A stretch of DNA of 57,019 nucleotides from an uncultured Gammaproteobacteria bacterium (GCA_964352335.1 CAYGRO010000006.1:4903-61921), one strand, 5' to 3'; numbered from the stretch's first letter, positions 6,228 to 55,900 are shown. The notes: a model not told the origin generated them from the sequence alone. A program made the numbers and translations.

Positions 6228-6282
6228 AACGAATCTACCAATAGTTCATACTTCGTAGATTCGTTCTAATTTGTAGATTCGA
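6211..6282. repeat. ATCTAC-family palindromic element, copy 2 (overlaps the holA 3' end)
   Basis: TCGAATCTACAAATTAGAACGAATCTAC / GTAGATTCGTTCTAATTTGTAGATTCGA perfect arms. Confidence 0.88.
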
Positions 6283-6286
6283 AATC

Positions 6287-6320
6287 AAAAAAGCCCTCGA
6301 AAATCGAGGACTCTTTTTTT
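6287..6320. terminator. Bidirectional intrinsic terminator between holA and rpsT
   Basis: AAAAAG-CCCTCGA-AAA-TCGAGGA-CTCTTTTTTTT between convergent genes. Confidence 0.7.
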
Positions 6321-6588
6321 ATTTGGCTTCTTGTAAGTCTCGGACTGTTTTAATCAATCGAGATTTTTTTCTAGCAACAGTGTTTTTCTTTAAAATTCCT
6401 TTTTGTTGTGCTTTGTCTAAAGCTTTGATAGTTGCTTTAAGCGATTCAGTCGCTTTAGCATCTTTTGCTTCAGCTTGTTGCTTTGTTTGCTTTGTAAGGT
6501 ATTTGATATTTACCTTAACATCGGTATTACGTTCTTCTCGTGCATACGATTGACGTAAAGCCTTTTTCGCATTTCTTAATTGTGGCAT
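6319..6588 (-). CDS. rpsT: 30S ribosomal protein S20
   Basis: MPQLRNAKKALRQS...LDKAQQKGILKKNTVARKKSRL. Confidence 0.97.
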   Translation of the reverse strand: MPQLRNAKKALRQSYAREERNTDVKVNIKYLTKQTKQQAEAKDAKATESLKATIKALDKAQQKGILKKNTVARKKSRLIKTVRDLQEAK

Positions 6589-6714
6589 AAGTTGAATTTA
6601 TTGAGTTGAAAGGTTCTTTATTTTCTATGGCTTCCGGGAGAGCTTTCCATTCACCATAAATGACTGAGTGAGGGTATTTAACAGGATTTTGGGATTATTG
6701 TCAAGGATTTTTCC

Positions 6715-6840
6715 CTTACCGCCCCCTCAATCCCCCTCCTAGCTTTCGGCCATGAGCTCAAGTCGAATGGAAGGAGGGGGAAGTACTAAGGGCTCTAATT
6801 TTTCTCTCCCCTCCTTCTAGGAGGGGTCGGGGGCGGTAAG
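6715..6840. repeat. GC-rich REP-like palindrome (TTACCGCCCCC...GGGGGCGGTAA family) with a nested 28-bp insert
   Basis: Terminal inverted repeats and an internal CCCCTCC/GGAGGGG doublet; homologous to 24167 and 52093. Confidence 0.9.
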
Positions 6841-6848
6841 CGATATTC

Positions 6849-17484: not shown

Positions 17485-17547
17485 ATAGGGTGAACTATTT
17501 GTATTGATTTTAACTTCGCATGTATACTAAGTTCTAGGAGGTGTTCA

Positions 17548-17685
17548 ATGATCGTCTATACGTCGCTTTTTCCATACCCAATCTGTGTATGGACTACACT
17601 GGGCTGGTTCCCCTATTGGGGGGTCGGGCTATCGGTGGTTTACTACCTGGTTCTGCGTCCTGTGAGGGATGTGCTCAATGGTTGA
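17548..17685 (+). CDS. 45-aa hydrophobic small protein (not in ORF track)
   Basis: AGGAGG 7 nt before ATG; MIVYTSLFPYPICVWTTLGWFPYWGVGLSVVYYLVLRPVRDVLNG*. TATACT -10 upstream and hairpins downstream. Confidence 0.6.
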   Translation: MIVYTSLFPYPICVWTTLGWFPYWGVGLSVVYYLVLRPVRDVLNG

Positions 17686-18068
17686 TATTCTCTTTCCTTC
17701 TTCTACCAGTCGACGAGATGGAATGGGTTTTCACCCTATTCCGACTGCAAACTCTGTTTTGCGGTCGGTTTCCATTTACACTAATATTAGCCTAAAAAGG
17801 GCATTTTTTGTTAGAAATGATTGACAATCAGGCAGAAGGTTGGTATTCTGTCTTTGCTAGAAGCAGCGAGGGTCCAGAGTCGGCCTCCTGTTTTTTTCTT
17901 ATCTTAAATTTGCTTTTTAGTAACTCTCAAGCATTATTCAGGTCTACAGATTCTTGTTGACAAAGAGAGAGCCTTTAAGGCAATTGGGAAAGGCCTTGCG
18001 CTATTCCCCGTAATGTAAAACGCGTCTTTTTTAGGACGTTACTCACAATTTTAAACTTCATTTCATAC

Positions 18069-21173: not shown

Positions 21174-21315
21174 AAGGATAACCGGTATGGTTTCTACGCA
21201 AAATTTTGGATATAAACCTATAGATAAATCAAACCCCAAGGCGATCCCTTGCGGTTGAGAGTTATAATCACTCTATTATATTAGACGTTAAAACAAGGAA
21301 AATGTTACATATGGG

Positions 21316-21461
21316 AACCCTCCCTCGTTCAGCCTGCTTTGCAGACTAAACATTCCCTCCCTTTTCAAGAGAGGGTTTTTGTTTTTATCTGATGCTATTC
21401 CCTCTCTCTTGAAAAGGGAGGGAAATGCGAAATGCCCCACGGGCATGAGCGAGGGAGGGTT
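21316..21461. repeat. Composite GC-rich REP-like palindrome
   Basis: AACCCTCCCTCG...CGAGGGAGGGTT outer arms; inner TTCCCTCCCTTTTCAAGAGAGGG / CCCTCTCTCTTGAAAAGGGAGGGAA. Confidence 0.75.
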
Positions 21462-21465
21462 CAAC

Positions 21466-21493
21466 AAAAAAACCCCCATTCAGGGAGTTTTTT
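21466..21493 (-). terminator. Intrinsic terminator closing the minus-strand orphan unit
   Basis: Minus strand: AAAAAACTCCC-TGAAT-GGGGGTTTTTTT directly after the stop at 21492. Confidence 0.7.
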
Positions 21494-21665
21494 AATTTCG
21501 ATATCTATTAAAAACATTAATTGAATCTTGTAATTCAGTATGGATTCGATCAACATTTGCTTCCAGGACCTGTGCTTGTTCTCGCATAGATTTCATCATG
21601 AACCAATTTGTGATTCCGAGTAAGACCAGCGATGACAAGATGACAAGTGTAAGTGTCATAGTCAT
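21492..21665 (-). CDS. 57-aa single-TM plus coiled-coil small protein (not in ORF track)
   Basis: MTMTLTLVILSSLVLLGITNWFMMKSMREQAQVLEANVDRIHTELQDSINVFNRYRN*, followed by a terminator. Confidence 0.65.
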   Translation of the reverse strand: MTMTLTLVILSSLVLLGITNWFMMKSMREQAQVLEANVDRIHTELQDSINVFNRYRN

Positions 21666-21688
21666 TTGTATAAGTTGTAAAAGAGGAG

Positions 21689-22072
21689 GGTCGGCGCGCC
21701 AAGGAGGTCCTGTGCATTGTGCAGCAGGGGCTCAGCGCGCCGACCACGAGGGGAAACATTATGGCATTCTCAGCCAAAGAAAGTCATGAAGTCATTCATG
21801 TCTATCTTCGACAGAGAAGAAAAGCGTTGCATCGTACAGTTACTGGGTTATAAATCTTTTCTAACTCGATATGCGGTGCTTTTCATTCTTCTGTTTAGGC
21901 CCGACCGCTGTCATAATCATGGTTCATGGTGCATGGTTCATTTCGTAAAACGTAGTTTACAAATTGTCCCATGTGCCATGTAATGTGTCTCATGATAATA
22001 ACAATGGTCGGGGCGGCAGGGAGCTAAGAGGTCGGCATCATGGTGATGTCAACATTGAGCTCCCTGCCGCGC
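21689..22072 (-). ncRNA. Chain of four long hairpins (structured intergenic RNA)
   Basis: Stems GGTCGGCGCGC/GCGCGCCGACC, ACAGA..GAAAAGCGTTGCAT/ATGCGGTGCTTTTC..TCTGT, GCCCGACC..ATCATG/CATGAT..GGTCGGGC and GCGGCAGGGAGCT/AGCTCCCTGCCGC. Confidence 0.55.
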
Positions 22073-22089
22073 GCGGGCGACGAAGGCGA

Positions 22090-22233
22090 TTAGAAGCTGT
22101 TACCGCCGGCGAGCGGGTTCGGGCGGCTGAAGCGGCTCGAGATCGGGATCGACAGCTTCGTGCTGGTCGTGTCCGTCTTGGCGCTGTTGCTGGGCTTCTG
22201 GTCGGTCTTCGGCTGCGTGGTCGTGTTCTTCAT
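22090..22233 (-). CDS. 47-aa Thr/Ser/Lys-rich peptide (not in ORF track)
   Basis: CTGAGGGGAAC SD before ATG; MKNTTTQPKTDQKPSNSAKTDTTSTKLSIPISSRFSRPNPLAGGNSF*; G/C-ending codons. Confidence 0.65.
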   Translation of the reverse strand: MKNTTTQPKTDQKPSNSAKTDTTSTKLSIPISSRFSRPNPLAGGNSF

Positions 22234-22376
22234 AGGTTCCCCTCAGGTTCCTCGGATTACTTTGGCAACGTGCCTCAGTTTCACCGCTTCATTTATTCAA
22301 TCGTGTTGAATAAATGGAGTGGTGGGCCGTGCAGCTCCTCGAGGCGGGGTGGGCTTCGAGGGCTGCACGGCCACGG

Positions 22377-22709
22377 CTAGGCGGCGAGCTGAAGGACGAG
22401 GGTCTTGCCCTCAGAAAAGCTAGCTTCGGCCTCTTCCGCAAGGTGCATGATCCGCGTGTCGTCTTCTGACGATGGGACTTGCAATGCGGGGTGAAGGATC
22501 ATTTCGATCCGCAGTTCTTGCTCGGGGGTGAGCGTGAACCAGGACTTCACATGCCCTAGGTTCATCGAGCTCCCGTGCACTTGCACAAGATCTTCGATGA
22601 CTTCAATTTTGTAGAGGTGGTCGGACAATCCGAGCACATCTACGAGAAACTGGCAGAGCAAGATATCGCTAAGCGTCATCTCCTTTGCCGTCTTTTCGAA
22701 GGTATGCAT
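22377..22709 (-). CDS. Orphan hypothetical protein, 110 aa
   Basis: AAGGAGG SD before ATG at 22709; ends ...LVLQLAA*. Confidence 0.75.
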   Translation of the reverse strand: MHTFEKTAKEMTLSDILLCQFLVDVLGLSDHLYKIEVIEDLVQVHGSSMNLGHVKSWFTLTPEQELRIEMILHPALQVPSSEDDTRIMHLAEEAEASFSEGKTLVLQLAA

Positions 22710-23559: not shown

Positions 23560-23928
23560 CAGAACAGTGTGTCTGTAAACAGCGGATTGCTGAATACAGA
23601 GAGTTCTCCCCTTAGGTAAGTACTCTATAATATTCAGCAAAAGATCCTGATTGAAGATGAAGATAAGGCCTCAGTTGGAAGGGGAAGTATGTAAAGAGCG
23701 GATGAGGTGCTTATCTTCATCTCTCGTCAGGATCGAGTGATGTTTTTCATCTAATAAGAGAAGAGAAAGGCCATACCGAGGTATGGAGATACGTAATGGT
23801 CATGCCCTGATCGTAGCCGGAGCCACAATGCTTGGGTCAATATCATTACAAGAGAGTCCTGGGTTCGAAAACTTACGACTCCGTACTCTCCTCTTATAAG
23901 ATGAAAAGAACTTCCATTCCCAACTTGA
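23560..23928 (-). ncRNA. Candidate structured leader RNA (RNA C) with a long-range pseudoknot
   Basis: Three long helical domains between the promoter and the first SD; the 5' 15-mer is complementary to the loop of domain 2. Confidence 0.6.
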
Positions 23929-23934
23929 CGAATC

Positions 23935-23963
23935 ACTATAACATATGTTGTAAAATGTGTCAA
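23935..23963 (-). promoter_or_regulatory. Sigma70 promoter of the orphan unit
   Basis: Minus strand TTGACA-17 bp-TATAGT with a TGn extension. Confidence 0.8.
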
Positions 23964-24166
23964 GAGGTGTGAGTTAGATTAGCAAAACATAGCTAATATT
24001 AGCTAAATACAAATGTCATAAAATACAAACATTCGAAAAAAAGAATGAAGTAGTTTTATCAAAACCAAGAAAAGAAAGCAAGAGATAAATAAGAAAAGCC
24101 TTTGATTTACGGGGGTTGTCGCTTGTGGTAGGATTTGGGTATATAAAGGAGGCAGAAGCTTGTCCC

Positions 24167-24261
24167 TTACCGCCCCCTCAATCCCCCTCCTAGAAGGAAG
24201 GGGGAAGGCTCTAGTCTTGCTGCTTTGCTCCCCTCCTTCTAGGAGGGGCTGGGGGCGGTAA
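24167..24261. repeat. TTACCGCCCCC-family REP-like palindrome without insert
   Basis: TTACCGCCCCCTCAATCCCCCTCCTAGAAGG...CCCCTCCTTCTAGGAGGGGCTGGGGGCGGTAA. Confidence 0.9.
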
Positions 24262-24291
24262 TCATTTATAAATTTACGTTTTTACTTATTT

Positions 24292-39586: not shown

Positions 39587-40193
39587 ACTCACACGAAATT
39601 TGAAACGTCTTCTCATCGAGTTAGACCTCTTTCTCTAAAAGCATTTATGCCTAAACGACTTAAAAGTGAAGACTCTTTATAAGAGTAATAACTAGCCTGC
39701 ATAATCTTTACGAGAAAAAAAGATTATACGGCTCACAGCCGTTTTTTTTGTTCCTCAAAATTCAGTAGATATAAGTAGGTACGAAGCACGCTTCGTGCCC
39801 TACTATCTGTTTACTGATTAGCTCGTTGACAACTGAATATTCTACGAAATTATATATATGATCTAAAACGTCATGTGCATCTTTACAGTACATCAAGTAC
39901 AAAAACTACAAATGATAAGTGCTACATTCTCTTGAGCATCACAAAAATTCTTTTTGTGGTTGTCTCAAGAAGGGTAAATGAGTGGATGCCTCGACATCTA
40001 GAGACGATGAAGGACGTGACAGCCTGCGAAAAGCTTCGGTTAGGTGGCTAGTAACCTATGACCCGGAGATGTCCGAATGGGGAAACCCCGCTCTTGTTAT
40101 AAAGAGTGAACTTATACTGAATACATAGGTATAAGTGGTGAACCTGGGGAATTGAAACATCTTAGTACCCAGAGGAAAAGAAAACAGTAAAAC

Positions 40194-40261
40194 CCATTAT
40201 AAATCTGGTTTGTAGAGACGTAATATTTTACGACTCGACAAGATAACCAGATTTATAATGG
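40194..40261 (+). other. Hairpin insertion (IVS/expansion) in 23S near E. coli position ~230
   Basis: CCATTATAAATCTGGTT/AACCAGATTTATAATGG arms inside the normally short GAAAAGAAA...GATTCC segment. Confidence 0.8.
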
Positions 40262-40607
40262 ACGTGATTCCCTTAGTAGTGGCGAACGAACGGGGAACAG
40301 CCTAAACCTTATCGGTGTGTCTTTTTGTGAAGTATGAGATTTATCTTATATCGATCAATTTGATTAAAGGATTACACCGTTGCCGATTTGGTGTCATGAG
40401 ACCTATTGTTAGAGCGTGTAATAGCTCTAGATAGGATAGCGGAAATATAGTTGAAGTTCCTGGAATCGGAACGCCAGAGAGGGTGACAGCCCCGTACACG
40501 AAATATTTTCTCTACCTATGAATACGGTTCTCGAGTACAGCGGGACTCGCGAAATCCTGTTGGAATTTGGGGTGACTATGCTCTAAGGCTAAATACTACT
40601 AGATGAT

Positions 40608-40644
<37 letters not shown>

Positions 40645-40819
40645 CACCCCGGTGAGGGGTCGTGAAATAGACCTGAAACCATTTACTTACAAGGAGTCGG
40701 AGGGCCTTATGGCCTGACGGCGTGCCTATTGAAGAATGAGCCAACGACTTTATTCTGTGTTGCCTGTTTAATTCCTTATAGGAAGAAGGCTCAGTGAAAG
40801 CGAGGCTTAACCGCCGAAA

Positions 40820-40885
40820 TGAGATAAATAGAATTTTGTACAGACGCAATTATTGCGTCTGTACTTAAAATTTCTATTTATCTCA
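40820..40885 (+). other. Hairpin insertion (IVS/expansion) in 23S near E. coli position ~650
   Basis: TGAGATAAATAGAA/TTCTATTTATCTCA arms around the perfect palindrome GTACAGACGCAAT-T-ATTGCGTCTGTAC. Confidence 0.8.
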
Positions 40886-42151
40886 ATCTGCAGCACAGAT
40901 AAGACCCGAAGCCGGGTGATCTATCCATGGCCAGGTTGAACCTCTATGAAAATAGAGGGGAGGACCGAACCCACTCGCCGTGCAACACGAGGGGATGAGT
41001 TGTGGATAGCGGAGAAATTCCAATCGAACCCGGCAATAGCTGGTTCTCCCCGAAATAGTTTTAGGACTAGCCTGTAATTGTCCCCTCTGGGGGTAGAGCA
41101 CTGTTTGAGGTTCGGGCCTTCGGGTACCGTCCACAGACAAACTCCGAATACCAGAGGACTAAAGTTACAGAGTTACACCATGGGGGCTAAGCTCCATTGG
41201 TGAAAAGGGAAACAGCCCAGATCGCAAAATAAGGTCCCTAAATCTTCGTTAAGTGTGAAAAGTGGTGAAAAGACTTATACAACGAGGAGGTTGGCTTAGA
41301 AGCAGCCATCCTTTAAAGAAAGCGTAACAGCTCACTCGTCTAGTCTTTTTGCGCTGAAAATGTAACGGGGCTAAACGAAGTACCGAATTTGCGGGTTCAA
41401 ATCTAGTTTACTAGATATGGGCGGTAGGGGAGCGTTCCAGTCGGCATTGAAGCCCAAACGTGAGAATGGGTGGAGTGACTGGAAGTGAGAATGTTGGCAT
41501 GAGTAGCAAAAATGCGGGTGAGAACCCCGCACACCGTAAACCCAAGGTTTCCTGGGCTATGTAAATCAGCTCAGGGTTAGTCGGTCCTAAGGCAAGGCCG
41601 AAAGGCGTAGTCGATGGACAGCAGGTTAATATTCCTGCACCACGGTGATAACTGATGGAGTGACGCTTGATTTGGGTCTCTGCGCAATTTTGGTTATGTG
41701 CGTTGGGGCAAGCAACTGGTGGTATAGGAAAATCCGTACCGCATATACAGGAGTTTGCATCGCAAGAGGAAGCCTTCGGGTGGAATCAAGAGAGACGAGA
41801 GTTGAGCCAAGAAAAACTTCTAGGGCTAATTATCAACGTGTCCGTACCGTAAACCGACACAGGTGGGTGAGGCGAGTAGCCTCAGGTGCACGAGAGAAAC
41901 ATGGTTAAGGAACTCGGCAAAACAGCGGTCGTACCTTCGGTATAAGGCCTGCCTACGTTCTTCGGAATTGTAGGCCGCAGCGAAAGACTCCAAGCGACTG
42001 TTTACCAAAAACACAGGTCCCTGCTAAAGCGCAAGCTGATGTATAGGGGCTGATGCCTGGCCAGTGTCCGAACGTTAAGAGGAGAGGTGAATCACTTCGG
42101 TGAGGCAGCCTTGAATCCAAGCGCGGATGAACGCCGGCGATAACTATAATC

Positions 42152-42557
<406 letters not shown>

Positions 42558-42818
42558 AAGTTCCGACCTGCACGAACGGCATAACGATTTGGAGACTGTC
42601 TCAACCATGTACTCGGCGAAATTGCAATGCGAGTAAAGATGCTCGCTACGCGTAGCAGGACGAAAAGACCCCGTGAAGCTTTACTACAACTTGATATTGT
42701 CATATTGTCTCAACTGTTCAGCATAGGTGGGAGCCTTCGGGCACCAGTGAGATACCACCCTGTTGTTATGGTATGACTAACCTTAGGCCGTGAAACCGGC
42801 CACGGGACAGTATCTGGT

Positions 42819-42850
<32 letters not shown>

Positions 42851-43073
42851 AAGTAACGGAGGCGTTTACAAAGGTTGGCTAGTTCCGGATGGAAATCGGG
42901 ACGATAGTGTAAAGGCATAAGCCAGCTTTACTGCAAGACAGACTCGTCGCGCAGTTACGAAAGTAGAACTTAGTGATCCGACCGTTCGATATAGGACGGC
43001 GGAAGCTCATCGGATAAAAGTTACTCCGGGGATAACAGGCTGATTGTGCCCAAGCGTCCATAGCGACGGCACA

Positions 43074-43110
<37 letters not shown>

Positions 43111-43144
43111 GTGAAGAAGCTCCCAAGGGTTTGGCTGTTCGCCA

Positions 43145-43196
<52 letters not shown>

Positions 43197-43621
43197 CTAT
43201 CCGCTACGCGCGTTAGAAATTTGAGGGGCCCTTTCTCTAGTACGAGAGGACCGAGAAGGACGAACCTCTAGTGTACCAGTTGTTCCACCAGGGGCATTGC
43301 TGGGTAGCTACGTTCGGGTTAGATAAGTGCTGAAGGCATCTAAGCACGAAGCTGTTCCCAAGATTAGATTTCATATCCTCCTAGGAGACTACTAGGTTGA
43401 TAGGCTGCAAGTGTAAGTACAGTGATGTATTAAGCTGAGCAGTACTAATGGATTTGAGACAACCACTAAACGAAGTTTTAGTGATTGTTTAAAGAGAATA
43501 CATAAATTGCACTTTCAAACGTAGTTTGTAAAATGCGCATGACGTTTTCGATTGTTATATATCGAAGTAGAATATTCATCACCTCATTGGAGCGTGGTAT
43601 CTCAATTTTGAGATCTCGTGC

Positions 43622-47556: not shown

Positions 47557-49326
47557 ATGTGTGGAATTATTGCTTATAAAGGGGGGAAACAAGCTGCACC
47601 ATTAGTATTAGATGGTTTAAGAAGACTAGAGTATAGAGGCTACGATTCATGGGGTATTGCTGTCATGGATCAACCAATTCGCATGATTAAAAAAGCAGGT
47701 AAAGTGGGAGAAGTAACTGAAAAGGATATTGAAAAACTTAAAGAAAGTACTTTAGGTATTGGGCATAGTCGTTGGGCAACGAATGGTGGTGTTACGGATT
47801 ATAATTCACATCCTCATATTAGTAATTCTGGTCGACTAGCTCTGGTCCATAATGGGATTGTAGAAAATTTTAGAGAATTAAAATCTGGGTTATTACAAAA
47901 AGGCTATTCATTTTCTTCAGAAACAGATTCAGAAGTCATTGTAAATTTAATTGAAGAACAATTAAAAACAGAAGATTTACATTCAGCTGTAAGAAATACG
48001 TTTTTACAATTAGATGGTCGAAATGCCATCGTCATTCTTGATAAAGAAACAGGAGTTTTACTGGGGGTTCGGTTTGGGTCTCCATTGATTGTTGGTATTG
48101 GTGAGAATGAATTCTTTTTAGCTTCAGATATACCAGCCTTTTTACAGCATACTCGAGATGTCAACTATTTAGATGATTATCAAATGGTTATTATTGATAA
48201 TGAAGGGCTTTCGTATAAAGATGTTCGAACTGGTGAGGCCATTCAAAGAAGAACCATTACGATTGACTGGGATGCCGAACAAGCAGAAAAAGGAGAGTAC
48301 GAGCATTTCATGCTAAAAGAGATTCATGAGCAAAGAGACACCATTAGAAAAGCAGTTGAACAGGATACAAAAGAAATTGAAGCAGCTGCCGAGATGATTA
48401 AAAAATCACGAGGAGCTTTTTTATCTGGTTGCGGAACGGCAGGAAAAGTTTGTCATGTGGGAGAATATTTTTTCAATGCCATTCCACAAAGACATACAAA
48501 CTTCGTTATCGCCTCTGAATTTGGAAACTATACACCGTTTTTAACAGACCAGAGTTTGATGATTGTTGTTTCACAAAGCGGAGAAACGGCCGACCTTTTA
48601 GAAGCGATTGAACAAGCCAAAGAGAAAGGGGTAAAAATTCTTTCTTTGGTAAATGTTCGAGGGTCTTCCATTATGCGAGAATCAGACAAATGCTTACTTG
48701 TTAATGCTGGCCCTGAACAAGCAGTTGCCTCTACAAAGGCGACGACAGCTCAAATGGCATTAATGGCCCTATTAGCCTATGCAACAGCAGGAAGGCTACA
48801 AGAAGGGCGTTTAAGGCTCACTCAGCTAGCAAGTGGTGTAAGCGAATGGTTAAATCCTCGCTATGAAGAACATATTCGTAAACTTGCCAAAATGATTCAT
48901 CAAACATCTGATATTTATATCATCGGACGTGGGGTAAATTATCCTTTAGCATTAGAATGCGCCATTAAATTACAAGAAGTAAGTTATATTCACGGAGAAG
49001 GATTTGCTGGTGGAGAATTAAAACATGGTCCACTCGCTTTGATTAAAGAAGGAACGCCTGTTATTACTTTGGTGGCAGATGATCAAAATAAAGCCGCTAT
49101 TTTAAGTAATGCGCAAGAAGTAAAATCTAGGGGCGGATATATTATTGGAGTCTCACCAACCAATGAAGAGGTTTTTGACTATTGGTTACGTGTACCAAAT
49201 GAAGGTGTGCTCTCACCTATTGTAAATATCATTCCAGTACAAATATTGGCGTATCATCTGGGGCTCCTCCGAGGAGTAAATCCAGATAAGCCAAGGAATT
49301 TAGCGAAGAGTGTGACGGTTAAATAA
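47557..49326 (+). CDS. glmS: Glutamine--fructose-6-phosphate aminotransferase
   Basis: MCGI, LEYRGYDS, SQSGETAD, VASTK, GELKHGP and PRNLAKSVT motifs. Confidence 0.97.
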   Translation: MCGIIAYKGGKQAAPLVLDGLRRLEYRGYDSWGIAVMDQPIRMIKKAGKVGEVTEKDIEKLKESTLGIGHSRWATNGGVTDYNSHPHISNSGRLALVHNGIVENFRELKSGLLQKGYSFSSETDSEVIVNLIEEQLKTEDLHSAVRNTFLQLDGRNAIVILDKETGVLLGVRFGSPLIVGIGENEFFLASDIPAFLQHTRDVNYLDDYQMVIIDNEGLSYKDVRTGEAIQRRTITIDWDAEQAEKGEYEHFMLKEIHEQRDTIRKAVEQDTKEIEAAAEMIKKSRGAFLSGCGTAGKVCHVGEYFFNAIPQRHTNFVIASEFGNYTPFLTDQSLMIVVSQSGETADLLEAIEQAKEKGVKILSLVNVRGSSIMRESDKCLLVNAGPEQAVASTKATTAQMALMALLAYATAGRLQEGRLRLTQLASGVSEWLNPRYEEHIRKLAKMIHQTSDIYIIGRGVNYPLALECAIKLQEVSYIHGEGFAGGELKHGPLALIKEGTPVITLVADDQNKAAILSNAQEVKSRGGYIIGVSPTNEEVFDYWLRVPNEGVLSPIVNIIPVQILAYHLGLLRGVNPDKPRNLAKSVTVK

Positions 49327-49342
49327 CTTAAATAAGATGAAT

Positions 49343-49372
49343 ACAGGGTTGACAACAGCCCTGTTTTTATTT
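49343..49372 (+). terminator. glmS terminator (contains a TTGACA)
   Basis: ACAGGGTTG-ACAA-CAGCCCTGT followed by TTTTATTT. Confidence 0.75.
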
Positions 49373-49389
49373 ATGGTACTTGATCACCT

Positions 49390-49885
49390 TGTGGTGGTAA
49401 TGATAAAAAGGAGAATCTATAACTGATGAAAAACAAGAGCAGGGGAATCCTGCTCACAGTCAACAGATACAACTGAGCCACCTCCTTGATAAGTTTAGAA
49501 CAGCTTTCCAAGGGCTGCCAGAAACGACTCGTTGTGAACTATTATTCTCGGCGGCAAAGAGGTCAGCCGGTATTGAGGCAGATCAGTCGCGTCAGCGGCC
49601 GCATCTCTGGCTCTGGGGCCTAGACACACATGCGCTGCCATTAATTCTCAGGCAGCACCTCGAAGTCTGCGAGCTATGTAGTCATGAGCATGAGTCGTTT
49701 ATGACGCGGGGGGTTGCTCAAAGAGATGGGTATGAAGTGCGTAAAGGGAGCGACATCATATCTGAACTCTATATGTATATCGTTTCGTTGAAGTCAAAAG
49801 CACGGCATCGGCCGAGAAAGAGAAAACGTTAGTCCGCACCAGTTTCATGAGATTGAAAAGTCTCATCTACGGGTGCGGCTTTTCT
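49390..49885 (+). ncRNA. Candidate large structured ncRNA or leader (RNA B), family not recognised
   Basis: ~500-nt GC-richer gap with no long ORF. Nested stems, including AAACGACTC/GAGTCGTTT about 170 nt apart, and a terminal CCGCACC/GGTGCGG + T tract. Confidence 0.62.
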
Positions 49886-49916
49886 AATTGCCTAAAATAT
49901 GGCAAAGTACGTGCAT

Positions 49917-50885
49917 ATGAAAAAAATTGTATTCATCGGTGGTGGAGGAGGAGTTTCAAATATCGTGCCTGGTTTACGCGATGATTTTGATGTGACTACG
50001 ATTATTACTACCTTTGATGATGGTGGAAGTTATGGAACATTTAGACAAGATTACAAAACACCATTAACAGGTGATATCCGACGAGCTTTTGCTGCACTTT
50101 CTACCAATAATCTTGGAGAACATACGGAGCATCGATTTGCAGATGGAGAAATGAAAGGGCATACACTTGGAAATATTGTACTTGCCTCTATTTTTGATCA
50201 ATATCAAGATGCGAAAAAAGCCATGGATAGGCTTCATGAGATTTTTGCGATTAAAGGAAAAGTACTTGGGGTCTCTTATGATCTCGCAGAATTACAAGCA
50301 GAGCTAAAAGACCGTAGCATTCTTCGTGGAGAACATCTTATAGATGAACCACATGCTAAATCACATATTGGTATCAACCGCATTTGGCTTGACCCTGAAC
50401 CAAAAGTAGCAGATGGAGTTATTGACGCCATCACAAATGCTGATCTTATTTTGATGGGGCCGGGGGATTTGTATTGTTCGTTAATTCCAAGCTTACTTGT
50501 AGAAGGAGTGGCAAAAGCTGTACAAGAATCAAAAGCTAAATTTGTGTCTATTTGTAATCGATTTACAAAGTATGGACAAACCAATAACTTTGCCGCATCT
50601 GATCATCTTCGAGTACTTTCTGAATATGCTCAACGCAAGCCGGATATTGTTATTTTGAATACAAGTCCAGTTGACCAAGAGGTGATTGATCATCATTTAG
50701 CTGAAAAAGAGGAACTCGTTGAACAAGATGTCGATTTGCTTAAAACTGAGGGGTATGATGTAATCTTAGCGGAATTATTAGCATCAGAGTTGGTAGAAAA
50801 ATCAAAGGCTGATACACTAAAAAGAAGCAAAATTAAAATGGATCCAGAAAAAATCAATCAATTGGTCCATAAACTACTAGATTAG
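49917..50885 (+). CDS. YvcK/GlmR (CofD-like) UDP-GlcNAc-binding protein
   Basis: IGGGGG, DDGGS, GDIRR, GHTLGN and GPGDLYCSLIP motifs. Second ATG (49917) preferred. Confidence 0.9.
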   Translation: MKKIVFIGGGGGVSNIVPGLRDDFDVTTIITTFDDGGSYGTFRQDYKTPLTGDIRRAFAALSTNNLGEHTEHRFADGEMKGHTLGNIVLASIFDQYQDAKKAMDRLHEIFAIKGKVLGVSYDLAELQAELKDRSILRGEHLIDEPHAKSHIGINRIWLDPEPKVADGVIDAITNADLILMGPGDLYCSLIPSLLVEGVAKAVQESKAKFVSICNRFTKYGQTNNFAASDHLRVLSEYAQRKPDIVILNTSPVDQEVIDHHLAEKEELVEQDVDLLKTEGYDVILAELLASELVEKSKADTLKRSKIKMDPEKINQLVHKLLD

Positions 50886-52085: not shown

Positions 52086-52092
52086 TTTCTCC

Positions 52093-52242
52093 CTTACCGC
52101 CCCCCCAATCCCTCTGCTAGCTTTCGGCCATGAGCTCAAGCCGAATGGGAGGAGGGGGAGGCGTTTAAGACTGGTTTCGCTCCCCTCCTTCTAGCTCTCG
52201 GCCATGAGCTCGAGCCGAATGGGAGGGGTTGGGGGCGGTAAA
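52093..52242. repeat. TTACCGCCCCC-family REP-like palindrome with two nested 28-bp inserts
   Basis: Same arms as 24167, with inserts at 52121-52148 and 52195-52222. Confidence 0.9.
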
Positions 52243-52268
52243 GGATAACCAAGATTAATAAAAAATAT

Positions 52269-54819: not shown

Positions 54820-54918
54820 TTGGAAACTTGCAAAACAATAAAATCACTAAAACACTGAAGCACAGAATGATTGAGCCTTTGAAAAAATAAACTCTGTAAA
54901 AAAGCGAAAGCCGTCGAC

Positions 54919-55167
54919 CTAATGAAAGATGACGGCTTTTTGGTTGAGGTGGTTTTGCAATACTGGCTTTCTTCGGGAGCTGTTGCGCTGTCGACTGGGT
55001 GTGCGCGCACCAGATTTTCTTCTATTGCGAGAAGTCAGGGCGATGAAGCCGTGGCCAGCAATGAAGAGAGTTCCGAAGAGGAAAATACCAAATAGCCAAA
55101 TGGCTATGACAATCATGCCGATGAATGCCATCGCAATCCCCAACATATAGGACAGGATTTCTCTCAT
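54919..55167 (-). CDS. Small membrane protein with a basic tail
   Basis: AAGGAG SD; long hydrophobic N-terminus; R/K-rich C-terminus. Confidence 0.62.
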   Translation of the reverse strand: MREILSYMLGIAMAFIGMIVIAIWLFGIFLFGTLFIAGHGFIALTSRNRRKSGARTPSRQRNSSRRKPVLQNHLNQKAVIFH

Positions 55168-55295
55168 TTTTTGTCTCCTTCCCTGTTCTCTCTATAGCTT
55201 TACATAGGAAGGATTGATTTGGCAAATAAAATGCAAAGAGCTCTAGAAAACGGCTGATGAAGAGGTTTCGTACCTCGTCGGCTATTTTCTAGAGC

Positions 55296-55481
55296 TCAAT
55301 TGTCGACCCTACCCCAGCGTTCGCTGACCCAGTAGATCAAGGGGAGAATCGGGCTAAACGGGGCGATCATTCTCATCCCGCTCCACCCTAATTCGTAGTA
55401 GGTAATACCGATTAGAACGATTCCAACCAGCACAATACTTGCAATACACCCCATTCCAGAGGGGTCTTCAATGTCTTCCAT
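55296..55481 (-). CDS. Small two-TM protein
   Basis: GGAG SD; two hydrophobic stretches; hairpin GAGCTCTAGAAAA/TTTTCTAGAGCTC directly downstream. Confidence 0.62.
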   Translation of the reverse strand: MEDIEDPSGMGCIASIVLVGIVLIGITYYELGWSGMRMIAPFSPILPLIYWVSERWGRVDN

Positions 55482-55617
55482 TTTGACTCCATAGTTTGGG
55501 ATTGGGGAAGAGATACATTCTCATAAAAACAGAAAAACTTCAAGGTTTGTGGTGAATACATTGACAAATGGGTTCTATAATGATTTGCTTAATACAGAGG
55601 GAGTCAGGAGGAGGTGC

Positions 55618-55797
55618 ATGCTTGCTGACATTTGTTTTGGATTTGGTCTTTTGGTTGCCATTGGGCTAATCCGAGTGTTTTCAGGGGGGGAGAACCCCCC
55701 AAGAGTAAATCCTGGGCTCGAAACGAAGAAGTGGCGAAAAAGTGAACGGCTGTACAATTCCTTCTCGGATGAGTACAACGACCGAACAGGCGCGTGA
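55618..55797 (+). CDS. 59-aa single-TM small protein
   Basis: AGGAGGAGG SD before ATG at 55618; MLADICFGFGLLVAIGLIRVF...; hairpin GAAGCGCA/TGCGCTTC downstream. Confidence 0.65.
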   Translation: MLADICFGFGLLVAIGLIRVFSGGENPPRVNPGLETKKWRKSERLYNSFSDEYNDRTGA

Positions 55798-55900
55798 GGT
55801 CGAAATCTGGGAAGCGCATTTACGTCTCAACGTGAGTGCGCTTCTACCTTTTAGCAATCTTTATAACATGTTAGTATGGGCTTATTAAAGCCTTTTTATT

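Follow-up and report, generated by a model that had tools for sequence, protein, structure and literature searches.

The question raised by this locus is what kind of genetic element separates glmS from yvcK in an uncultured bacterium whose genome, with a size of 1.16 Mb in 22 contigs, has a GC content of 0.385. The intergenic region between the two genes measures some 570 nucleotides (572) and has a GC content of 0.46. An earlier note on the 57,019 nucleotides of DNA analysed here (hereafter, the window) described this region as a multi-junction RNA of about 500 nt, postulated to act either as a riboswitch or attenuator for yvcK and the genes that follow it, or as an independent RNA cassette. 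That description missed an open frame of 141 codons, which changes the terms of the question. On the evidence set out below, we give an even chance to the reading that the stretch is a self-contained accessory cassette encoding an orphan protein, whose gene is either started at an AUA codon or has recently been silenced.

The glmS-yvcK junction and the architecture of the unit

The upstream core gene, glmS (glutamine-fructose-6-phosphate aminotransferase; 47557-49326, plus strand), is recognised by its Pfam SIS (4.8e-46), GATase_6 and GATase_7 domains. It is followed on the same strand by an intrinsic terminator (49343-49373, from the terminator scan), in which a 9-pair hairpin (49343-49364) precedes a T-run; this hairpin has a folding energy of -15.5 kcal/mol and a z-score of -6.54, equalled by none of 200 shuffles. 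On the other side of the stretch lies a gene of the yvcK/CofD family (49899-50885, plus strand; Pfam CofD, 4.6e-67). Its true start is probably the ATG at 49917 rather than position 49899, because the proteins encoded by the open reading frames (ORFs) of relatives begin, once aligned, with M..KKIVF. Downstream of yvcK follow, by Pfam assignment, an ATP-grasp/citrate-binding gene, a HAD hydrolase gene and a CoA-ligase gene. The GC content reaches a peak of 0.545 inside the stretch, against 0.33-0.40 in the flanks, and a range of 0.47-0.55 describes the unit.

The order glmS then yvcK is found in all five syntenic loci that were fetched. Two of them are metagenome contigs, for which a scan with yvcK alone found no relative and an aligned query then found the two loci; the spacer between the genes measures 11 nt in one and 137 nt in the other. 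A family member (G003) has a 382-nt spacer holding a GIY-YIG nuclease gene of 95 aa on the minus strand of the locus (L011 674-961; Pfam 3e-15). The remaining two relatives, G002 and G001, carry GC-rich inserts of 956 and 1209 nt, respectively, both of which include a promoter-like site as well as a terminator-like hairpin. The G002 insert contains an ORF of 180 aa led by a Shine-Dalgarno (SD) motif, with two relatives in the protein library (58% and 34% identity), and the G001 insert contains an orphan ORF of 227 aa that has no relative in that library. Across the five loci, the inserts align neither with each other nor with the stretch described here, and none of these loci has a counterpart of it. 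Judged from these comparisons, the stretch is a lineage-specific insert in an otherwise tight junction, which has been occupied on several occasions. A search for insertion scars found no direct or inverted repeat of at least 7 nt between the two borders.

Searches by DNA found no homologue in 40 relatives and no match in plasmids. In phages, the sole match was a trivial one of 45 nt over the glmS terminator region (E 4e-3). The best match within the same genome has an E value of 0.97 over 18 nt, which gives no sequence support to the kinship that had been suggested with another element of the window, termed RNA A.

At the 5′ side of the unit, a sigma-70-like promoter, TTGACA-17-TATGGT (49349-49377, plus strand), matches the consensus at 10 of 12 positions and overlaps the glmS terminator hairpin, its -35 hexamer sitting in the loop of the latter. 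A promoter scan found this one site, compared with a mean of 1.5 in shuffled sequences, and the promoter is therefore to be read as a consensus match and not as proof. On the minus strand, no promoter was found in 49250-50000. A small hairpin (49383-49398, plus strand) lies close to the predicted start of the transcript, although the local fold around it (49380-49430) is not significant (z -1.02), and this is followed by three consecutive stops, TAA TGA TAA (TAATGATAA; 49398-49406, plus strand), and by an SD motif, AAGGAG, which was identified by reading the sequence (49408-49413, plus strand). Further downstream, a 7-bp hairpin, GAGCAGG/CCTGCTC (49437-49443/49449-49455, plus strand), has a z-score of -2.95, equalled by 1 of 200 shuffles. 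Read on the minus strand, the same element (49437-49455) has a terminator-like score and is followed by TTGTTTTTCA.

The unit ends in a terminator-like element (49831-49885, plus strand), made of a compound hairpin (49831-49880) and a TTTTCT tract. The terminal hairpin has an energy of -24.4 kcal/mol, against -11.1 in shuffles (z -5.05, equalled by none of 200), and it is absent from the list of a simple terminator scan because its loop exceeds the limit of that scan. The promoter-like site, its overlap with the glmS terminator (49349-49377 on 49343-49364), the 7-bp hairpin and the terminal hairpin had all been described in the earlier note, and we recover each of them in place, together with the long-range pair and the 16-codon ORF considered below.

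Folding of the stretch

Over 511 nt, the plus strand of the stretch reaches a minimum free energy (MFE) of -171.3 kcal/mol, with a z-score of -3.87 that none of 100 shuffles equals, compared with -2.67 for the minus strand. Shuffles that preserve local composition (25 for each strand) give z-scores of -3.53 and -2.28, respectively. The plus-strand centroid retains most of the MFE pairs, and GCTGCC/GGCAGC and GTTGCTC/GAGCGAC, two helices noted previously, are both present and paired in the MFE fold. When the tightness of the ensemble is considered, 2 of 20 shuffles match the plus strand, compared with 10 of 20 in the case of a coding control and none of 20 in that of 23S rRNA.

Most of the fold excess comes from the terminator hairpin and is not spread over the multi-junction body. 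Without the terminal hairpin, the body (49386-49830) has a z-score of -2.09 (3 of 100 shuffles equal it), and the segment 49460-49830 has one of -1.92 (4 of 100). The predicted multi-junction core (49515-49707, plus strand) reaches -1.97 (10 of 200) and the 3′ part -0.78 (41 of 200). The core is closed by a 12-nt inverted repeat that is 92% complementary (49519-49530/49692-49703), within which the long-range AAACGACTC/GAGTCGTTT pair lies; by simple arithmetic, the chance expectation for a 9-bp inverted repeat in 500 nt is about one in every two such stretches. Six pieces from five coding controls of the window have z-scores of -0.03, -2.88, -2.75, -1.77, -2.43 and -1.27, and a 23S piece has one of -3.09. 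A seventh control, 21964-22380 (z -10.0), was left out of the coding range because it consists of stacked long hairpins that are nearly perfect, and it is probably noncoding. The folding of the body without its hairpin is within the range of the window's coding controls, and the fold is real yet not exceptional.

These results bear on the view that the stretch is an independent, species-specific structured noncoding RNA (ncRNA) of about 500 nt, extending from its own promoter to its own terminator, with the open frame as a by-product of GC composition. We hold this account to be unlikely. A GC content of 0.47-0.55 in a genome of 0.385 is the signal reportedly used in searches of GC-rich intergenic regions for ncRNAs (PMC8723152, PMC6429828). 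With both kinds of shuffle, the plus strand has the more favourable z-score of the two strands, and the diversity of its ensemble, whose centroid keeps most of the MFE pairs, is below that of 18 of 20 shuffles; this better and fairly well-defined fold would also suit an RNA, as would the lack of a canonical start codon and the poor protein-likeness scores reported in the next section. On the other hand, the body, the core and the 3′ part all fall in the coding-control range once the terminator hairpin is set aside, and the searches for RNA families tell against the account as well.

A scan of the whole window with Rfam 15 at gathering score returned rRNA, tRNA and a group I intron only. When 49200-50000 was searched with E values of up to 10, the best match scored 24.5 bits against a cut-off of 55, and the snoRNA and sRNA matches were at chance level. 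RNase P RNA and tmRNA are both located elsewhere in the genome. A single-sequence covariance model of the core matched only itself, with no match in the five syntenic loci or in 100 relatives. Since no homologue was found, no alignment can be made and no covariation is possible. The earlier note had itself named a lack of homologues or covariation as the outcome that would speak against its RNA, and the searches by DNA and by covariance model returned no homologue.

OLE, GOLLD, ROOL, HEARO and raiA share with the stretch a comparable size and a predicted fold with several junctions, and the glmS ribozyme resembles it in adjoining glmS. Unlike the stretch, for which Rfam holds no match, all of these are widely conserved families. 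Moreover, the glmS ribozyme sits 5′ of glmS, whereas the stretch sits 3′ of it. In the GC-IGR and DIMPL approaches, candidate ncRNAs are drawn from long GC-rich intergenic regions of AT-rich genomes (PMC6429828, PMC8632094, PMC8723152), and a screen of this kind would select the present region, with its 572 nt and a GC content of 0.46 against a genome value of 0.385. Such candidates are reportedly accepted on conservation and covariation, in contrast to the present stretch, which has no second copy in our searches. The case carries a caution for RNA discovery, as a GC-rich intergenic region of an AT-rich genome can fold well mainly through its terminator and can at the same time hide an open frame.

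The 141-codon frame and its missing start

The long frame, obtained by stop-to-stop reading of the plus strand (49407-49832), is free of stops for 141 codons and spans nearly the whole unit. It opens at the SD, directly after the three stops at 49398-49406, which are in frame with it and close its 5′ side, and it ends with a TAG (49830-49832) whose last two bases are overlapped by the base of the terminal hairpin at 49831, 1-2 nt from the stop. Of 5000 dinucleotide shuffles, 56 contain a frame of at least 141 codons; when block shuffles preserving local composition are used, the count is 246 of 20000 (about 1.2%, p ~0.012). The frame also displays a three-base periodicity (chi2 17.1), a value reached by the longest frames in 2.1% of all shuffles and in 3.7% of the 246 equally long ones. 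The bounds of the unit, a promoter-like site and a terminator-like hairpin, support only part of the earlier idea of an independent RNA cassette. Against an RNA stands the SD-led frame that fills the unit from end to end, with a length seen in about 1.2% of shuffles and periodicity besides.

A codon log-odds model was built from 70 GC-rich ORFs of the genome that are led by an SD. It gives the long frame 0.008 per codon; none of the other five frames scores as high (the next has -0.21), and all 66 windows of 23S rRNA score lower (maximum -0.11). Relative to the class on which the model was trained, the score is in the low tail, as 4.5% of 44 leave-one-out class genes score lower, and 10% of 220 off-frames outscore the long frame, which places it at the 90th percentile. 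Its position-specific base composition correlates with that of the class at r = 0.23, no better than that of two other frames, and C occupies 0.15 of its third positions (C3) compared with 0.34 in the class. GC3, at 0.46, is lower than GC1, at 0.59. As for alternative genetic codes, code 25 yields no better frame.

Read from the AUA codon at 49419, the predicted product is an orphan of about 137 residues, rich in Q, H, R and L, with an H-x3-C-x2-C-x-H-x-H motif and a basic tail, KSKARHRPRKRKR, at its end. The H-x3-C-x2-C portion, seen by eye at residues 84-91, is a putative zinc-binding motif, comparable to that of zf-HC2 (PF13490), a zinc-binding anti-sigma domain. Membership in zf-HC2 was considered and rejected, given that no Pfam profile matches the frame even at an E value of 10; PHROGs and PADLOC returned no family match either. 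In the ESM Atlas, one cluster at rank 24 has 59% of its members with zf-HC2, at a score of 0.82 that is chance level, and the Atlas scores reach at most 0.86, likewise chance level. The single-sequence AlphaFold2 model is poor and uninformative (mean pLDDT 46.9), and the language-model recognition score is 1957, below the 2300 reached by 91 of 100 known-family proteins.

The 141-aa frame has no match in a word-indexed library of 5.8 billion proteins and none by phmmer over 1.84 billion representatives, bearing in mind that protein libraries contain called genes only and that relatives also without a canonical start could be missed. A six-frame search of 400 genomes of the class gave three matches, with E values of 0.002-0.008 per genome and internal stops in each, which is the number expected by chance. 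Neither viral nor genome contigs contained a match.

In the long frame, no ATG, GTG or TTG occurs before codon 99 (49701), so that 98 codons have no canonical start. Among shuffles, 7 of the 3705 with a longest frame of 100 codons or more show such a run, against none of the 224 with one of 141 or more; the run is rare, and odd for a real gene as well. Start-less frames of at least 100 codons number 117 in the genome, five of them outside canonical ORFs. The long frame is the longest of those five, and no other frame among them is headed by an SD, as judged by inspection of 57-nt starts.

An in-frame ATA (49419-49421, plus strand), placed 5 nt after GGAG, is the candidate for a non-canonical start or for a mutated ATG. 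Both the SD and this ATA are unpaired in the centroid fold. GGAG is found at most 20 nt before the start in 39 of 172 GC-rich ORFs of the genome; the spacing is 0-9 nt in all 39, mostly 3-8 nt (mode 5-8), and at least 10 nt in none. The spacing of the ATA lies inside this range, whereas that of the ATG at 49426, which is out of frame and 12 nt from GGAG, lies outside. In the bacteria that have been tested, ATA initiates translation very poorly. The use of AUA as a weak start and a recent mutation of ATG to ATA would both fit, the latter being a G-to-A change that would match the direction of the genome's composition. In Escherichia coli, infC starts at AUU and not at AUG, GUG or UUG. The ATA is similar to infC-type starts in being a near-cognate AUN codon at ideal SD spacing, and dissimilar in that AUA, here a putative start, is rarer than AUU.

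An assembly error in the A5 run, where one extra base would put the ATG at 49426 in frame, was also considered and found unlikely. The contigs of four public runs are identical, with no indel in the A-run, although all four belong to one study and one of them is possibly the source of the window. None of the public runs listed as containing the sequence is an RNA run, a result that carries no weight for or against expression.

The stretch as an accessory cassette and the alternatives

For a protein-coding cassette, we infer the following course of expression. Transcription would start from the sigma-70-like promoter, proceed for about 500 nt and stop at the terminal hairpin, and the exposed SD would recruit a ribosome, an entry route that the SD-less core genes of the genome do not use. 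Translation would then begin at the in-frame AUA at 49419, 5 nt downstream of the SD, to give a 137-residue orphan protein carrying the H-x3-C-x2-C-x-H-x-H motif and the basic tail. If an ATG has recently been mutated to ATA, the unit would be a young pseudogene. Standing against this reading are the 98 codons without a canonical start, the lack of a homologue, the weak codon bias, the poor pLDDT and the low recognition score.

The cassette reading has a background in the composition of the genome itself. SD-like motifs precede 70 of 172 ORFs with a GC content of at least 0.46, versus 43 of 908 with a GC content below 0.42, and the SD therefore marks a GC-rich accessory class. Like the members of this class, the stretch has a GC content above the genome mean (0.47-0.545 versus 0.385), its own promoter-like site (by consensus only), an SD and a terminator hairpin. 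It also resembles them in having a single small lineage-specific frame between core genes, absent or replaced in relatives, with a content that varies across genera. It is unlike them in that the SD precedes an ATA instead of standing 0-9 nt before the canonical start of a unit-filling ORF, that its third-position composition is off and that its codon score is in the low tail. A similar organisation is known from phage morons, which are autonomous units of promoter, gene and terminator lodged between conserved genes and were reportedly described by Hendrix and colleagues. The stretch shares with morons the architecture of the unit and the position between genes that are adjacent in relatives, and differs from them in its location, a bacterial chromosome without phage genes in the vicinity, and in having no match in PHROGs or viral contigs.

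Should the cassette reading be true, the stretch would represent a further case of GC-rich, SD-led, fast-turnover cassettes located between SD-less core genes, at a junction that would have been filled independently in at least four genera. It would bear on the way in which streamlined genomes acquire genes when neither integrases nor repeats are visible. In addition, it would matter for annotation, since a non-canonical start codon causes such units to be overlooked by gene finders. Horizontal gene gain is documented in Patescibacteria (PMC12455944). A literature search combining Patescibacteria, Shine-Dalgarno and leaderless found no paper on an SD/leaderless split.

Alternatively, the stretch could be non-functional DNA, left over from an inserted cassette or a gene fragment now in decay and possibly still transcribed, which we regard as unlikely. 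Features that weaken the protein reading speak for such decay, namely the missing start codon, the lack of homologues and the weak codon bias. A GC3 below GC1 is expected if AT-biased mutation erodes silent sites, and the site itself turns over between genera. It is harder to reconcile with a remnant that the frame is fully open over 141 codons, as in about 1.2% of shuffles, and that the promoter-like site, the SD and the terminator are all intact. The identity of the sequence in the contigs of the four runs, all of one study and one possibly the source, also tells against it.

A more elaborate possibility is that the stretch is by design a structured, species-specific mRNA, entered by an unconventional route only (AUA initiation at the ideal SD spacing, or a -1 shift from coupled mini-ORFs), or a dual RNA that is both folded and coding. 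The combination of no stops for 141 codons with no starts for 98 codons, seen in none of the 224 shuffles with an equally long frame, could be deliberate, and a zinc-binding, basic-tailed protein would then be tightly throttled or made conditionally. We rate this possibility as quite unlikely.

The out-of-frame ORF of 16 codons that starts at ATG 49426 (MKNKSRGILLTVNRYN; 49426-49476, plus strand) suggests another product, a 16-residue peptide, the rest of the unit being otherwise a long 3′ UTR. In variants of this scheme, the ATG may be coupled to an 8-codon mini-ORF (49400-49426, plus strand), whose TGA overlaps it as TGATG in a classic coupling arrangement, or a -1 shift on GAAAAAC may lead the ribosome into the long frame. 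It is in keeping with these ideas that no canonical start other than ATG 49426 lies near the SD, that the long frame is the -1 frame relative to this ATG, and that an A-rich run and the hairpin at 49437-49455 come after it. However, the SD spacing of 12 nt exceeds the 0-9 nt range of all 39 class members, GAAAAAC does not fit the canonical X-XXY-YYZ heptamer and has the hairpin only 2 nt beyond it, and the contigs of the four runs display no variation in A-run length. Taken together with its variants, the peptide is very unlikely to be the real product.

The remaining proposal, a cis-acting leader (riboswitch or attenuator) for yvcK and the downstream ATP-grasp and CoA-ligase genes, is extremely improbable: the terminator-like hairpin does end about 15-30 nt before the yvcK start, and read-through could feed yvcK, but a related stretch is missing at all five syntenic loci, two of them with the 11- and 137-nt spacers, no riboswitch was matched in Rfam, the unit carries an SD and an open frame, and the junction spacers are variable and unrelated in the five loci, which therefore rules out a conserved yvcK leader or riboswitch.

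Several other features of the window and of the related loci were observed along the way. The 23S rRNA gene (39958-43466) measures 3509 nt, compared with a model length of 2925, and contains a group I intron at 42172-42487 (75.1 bits). The GC-rich region 21900-22400 (plus strand) is a chain of long near-perfect hairpins with stems of up to about 20 bp; it has an MFE of -256.8 kcal/mol and a z-score of -10.8, equalled by none of 100 shuffles, and may be the RNA A of the earlier note, with no sequence in common with the stretch between glmS and yvcK. A 138-aa ORF with a TTG start is listed over it and looks like an R/G-rich read-through of repeats. In the relative G002, a C/G-rich palindrome is found 3′ of glmS (L009 300-390). 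Five more gaps of 580-1080 nt without a canonical ORF of at least 90 aa occur in the window (6228-6848, 17485-18068, 21240-21963, 23641-24291 and 54820-55900), with GC contents of 0.39-0.44, and the last of them has short stop-to-stop frames only. Finally, the ATP-grasp/citrate-binding and HAD genes are separated by 183 nt (52086-52268; GC 0.55) that form a single long nested palindrome containing a direct repeat of about 35 nt, with an MFE of -93.6 kcal/mol and a z-score of -6.6 that none of 200 shuffles equals.
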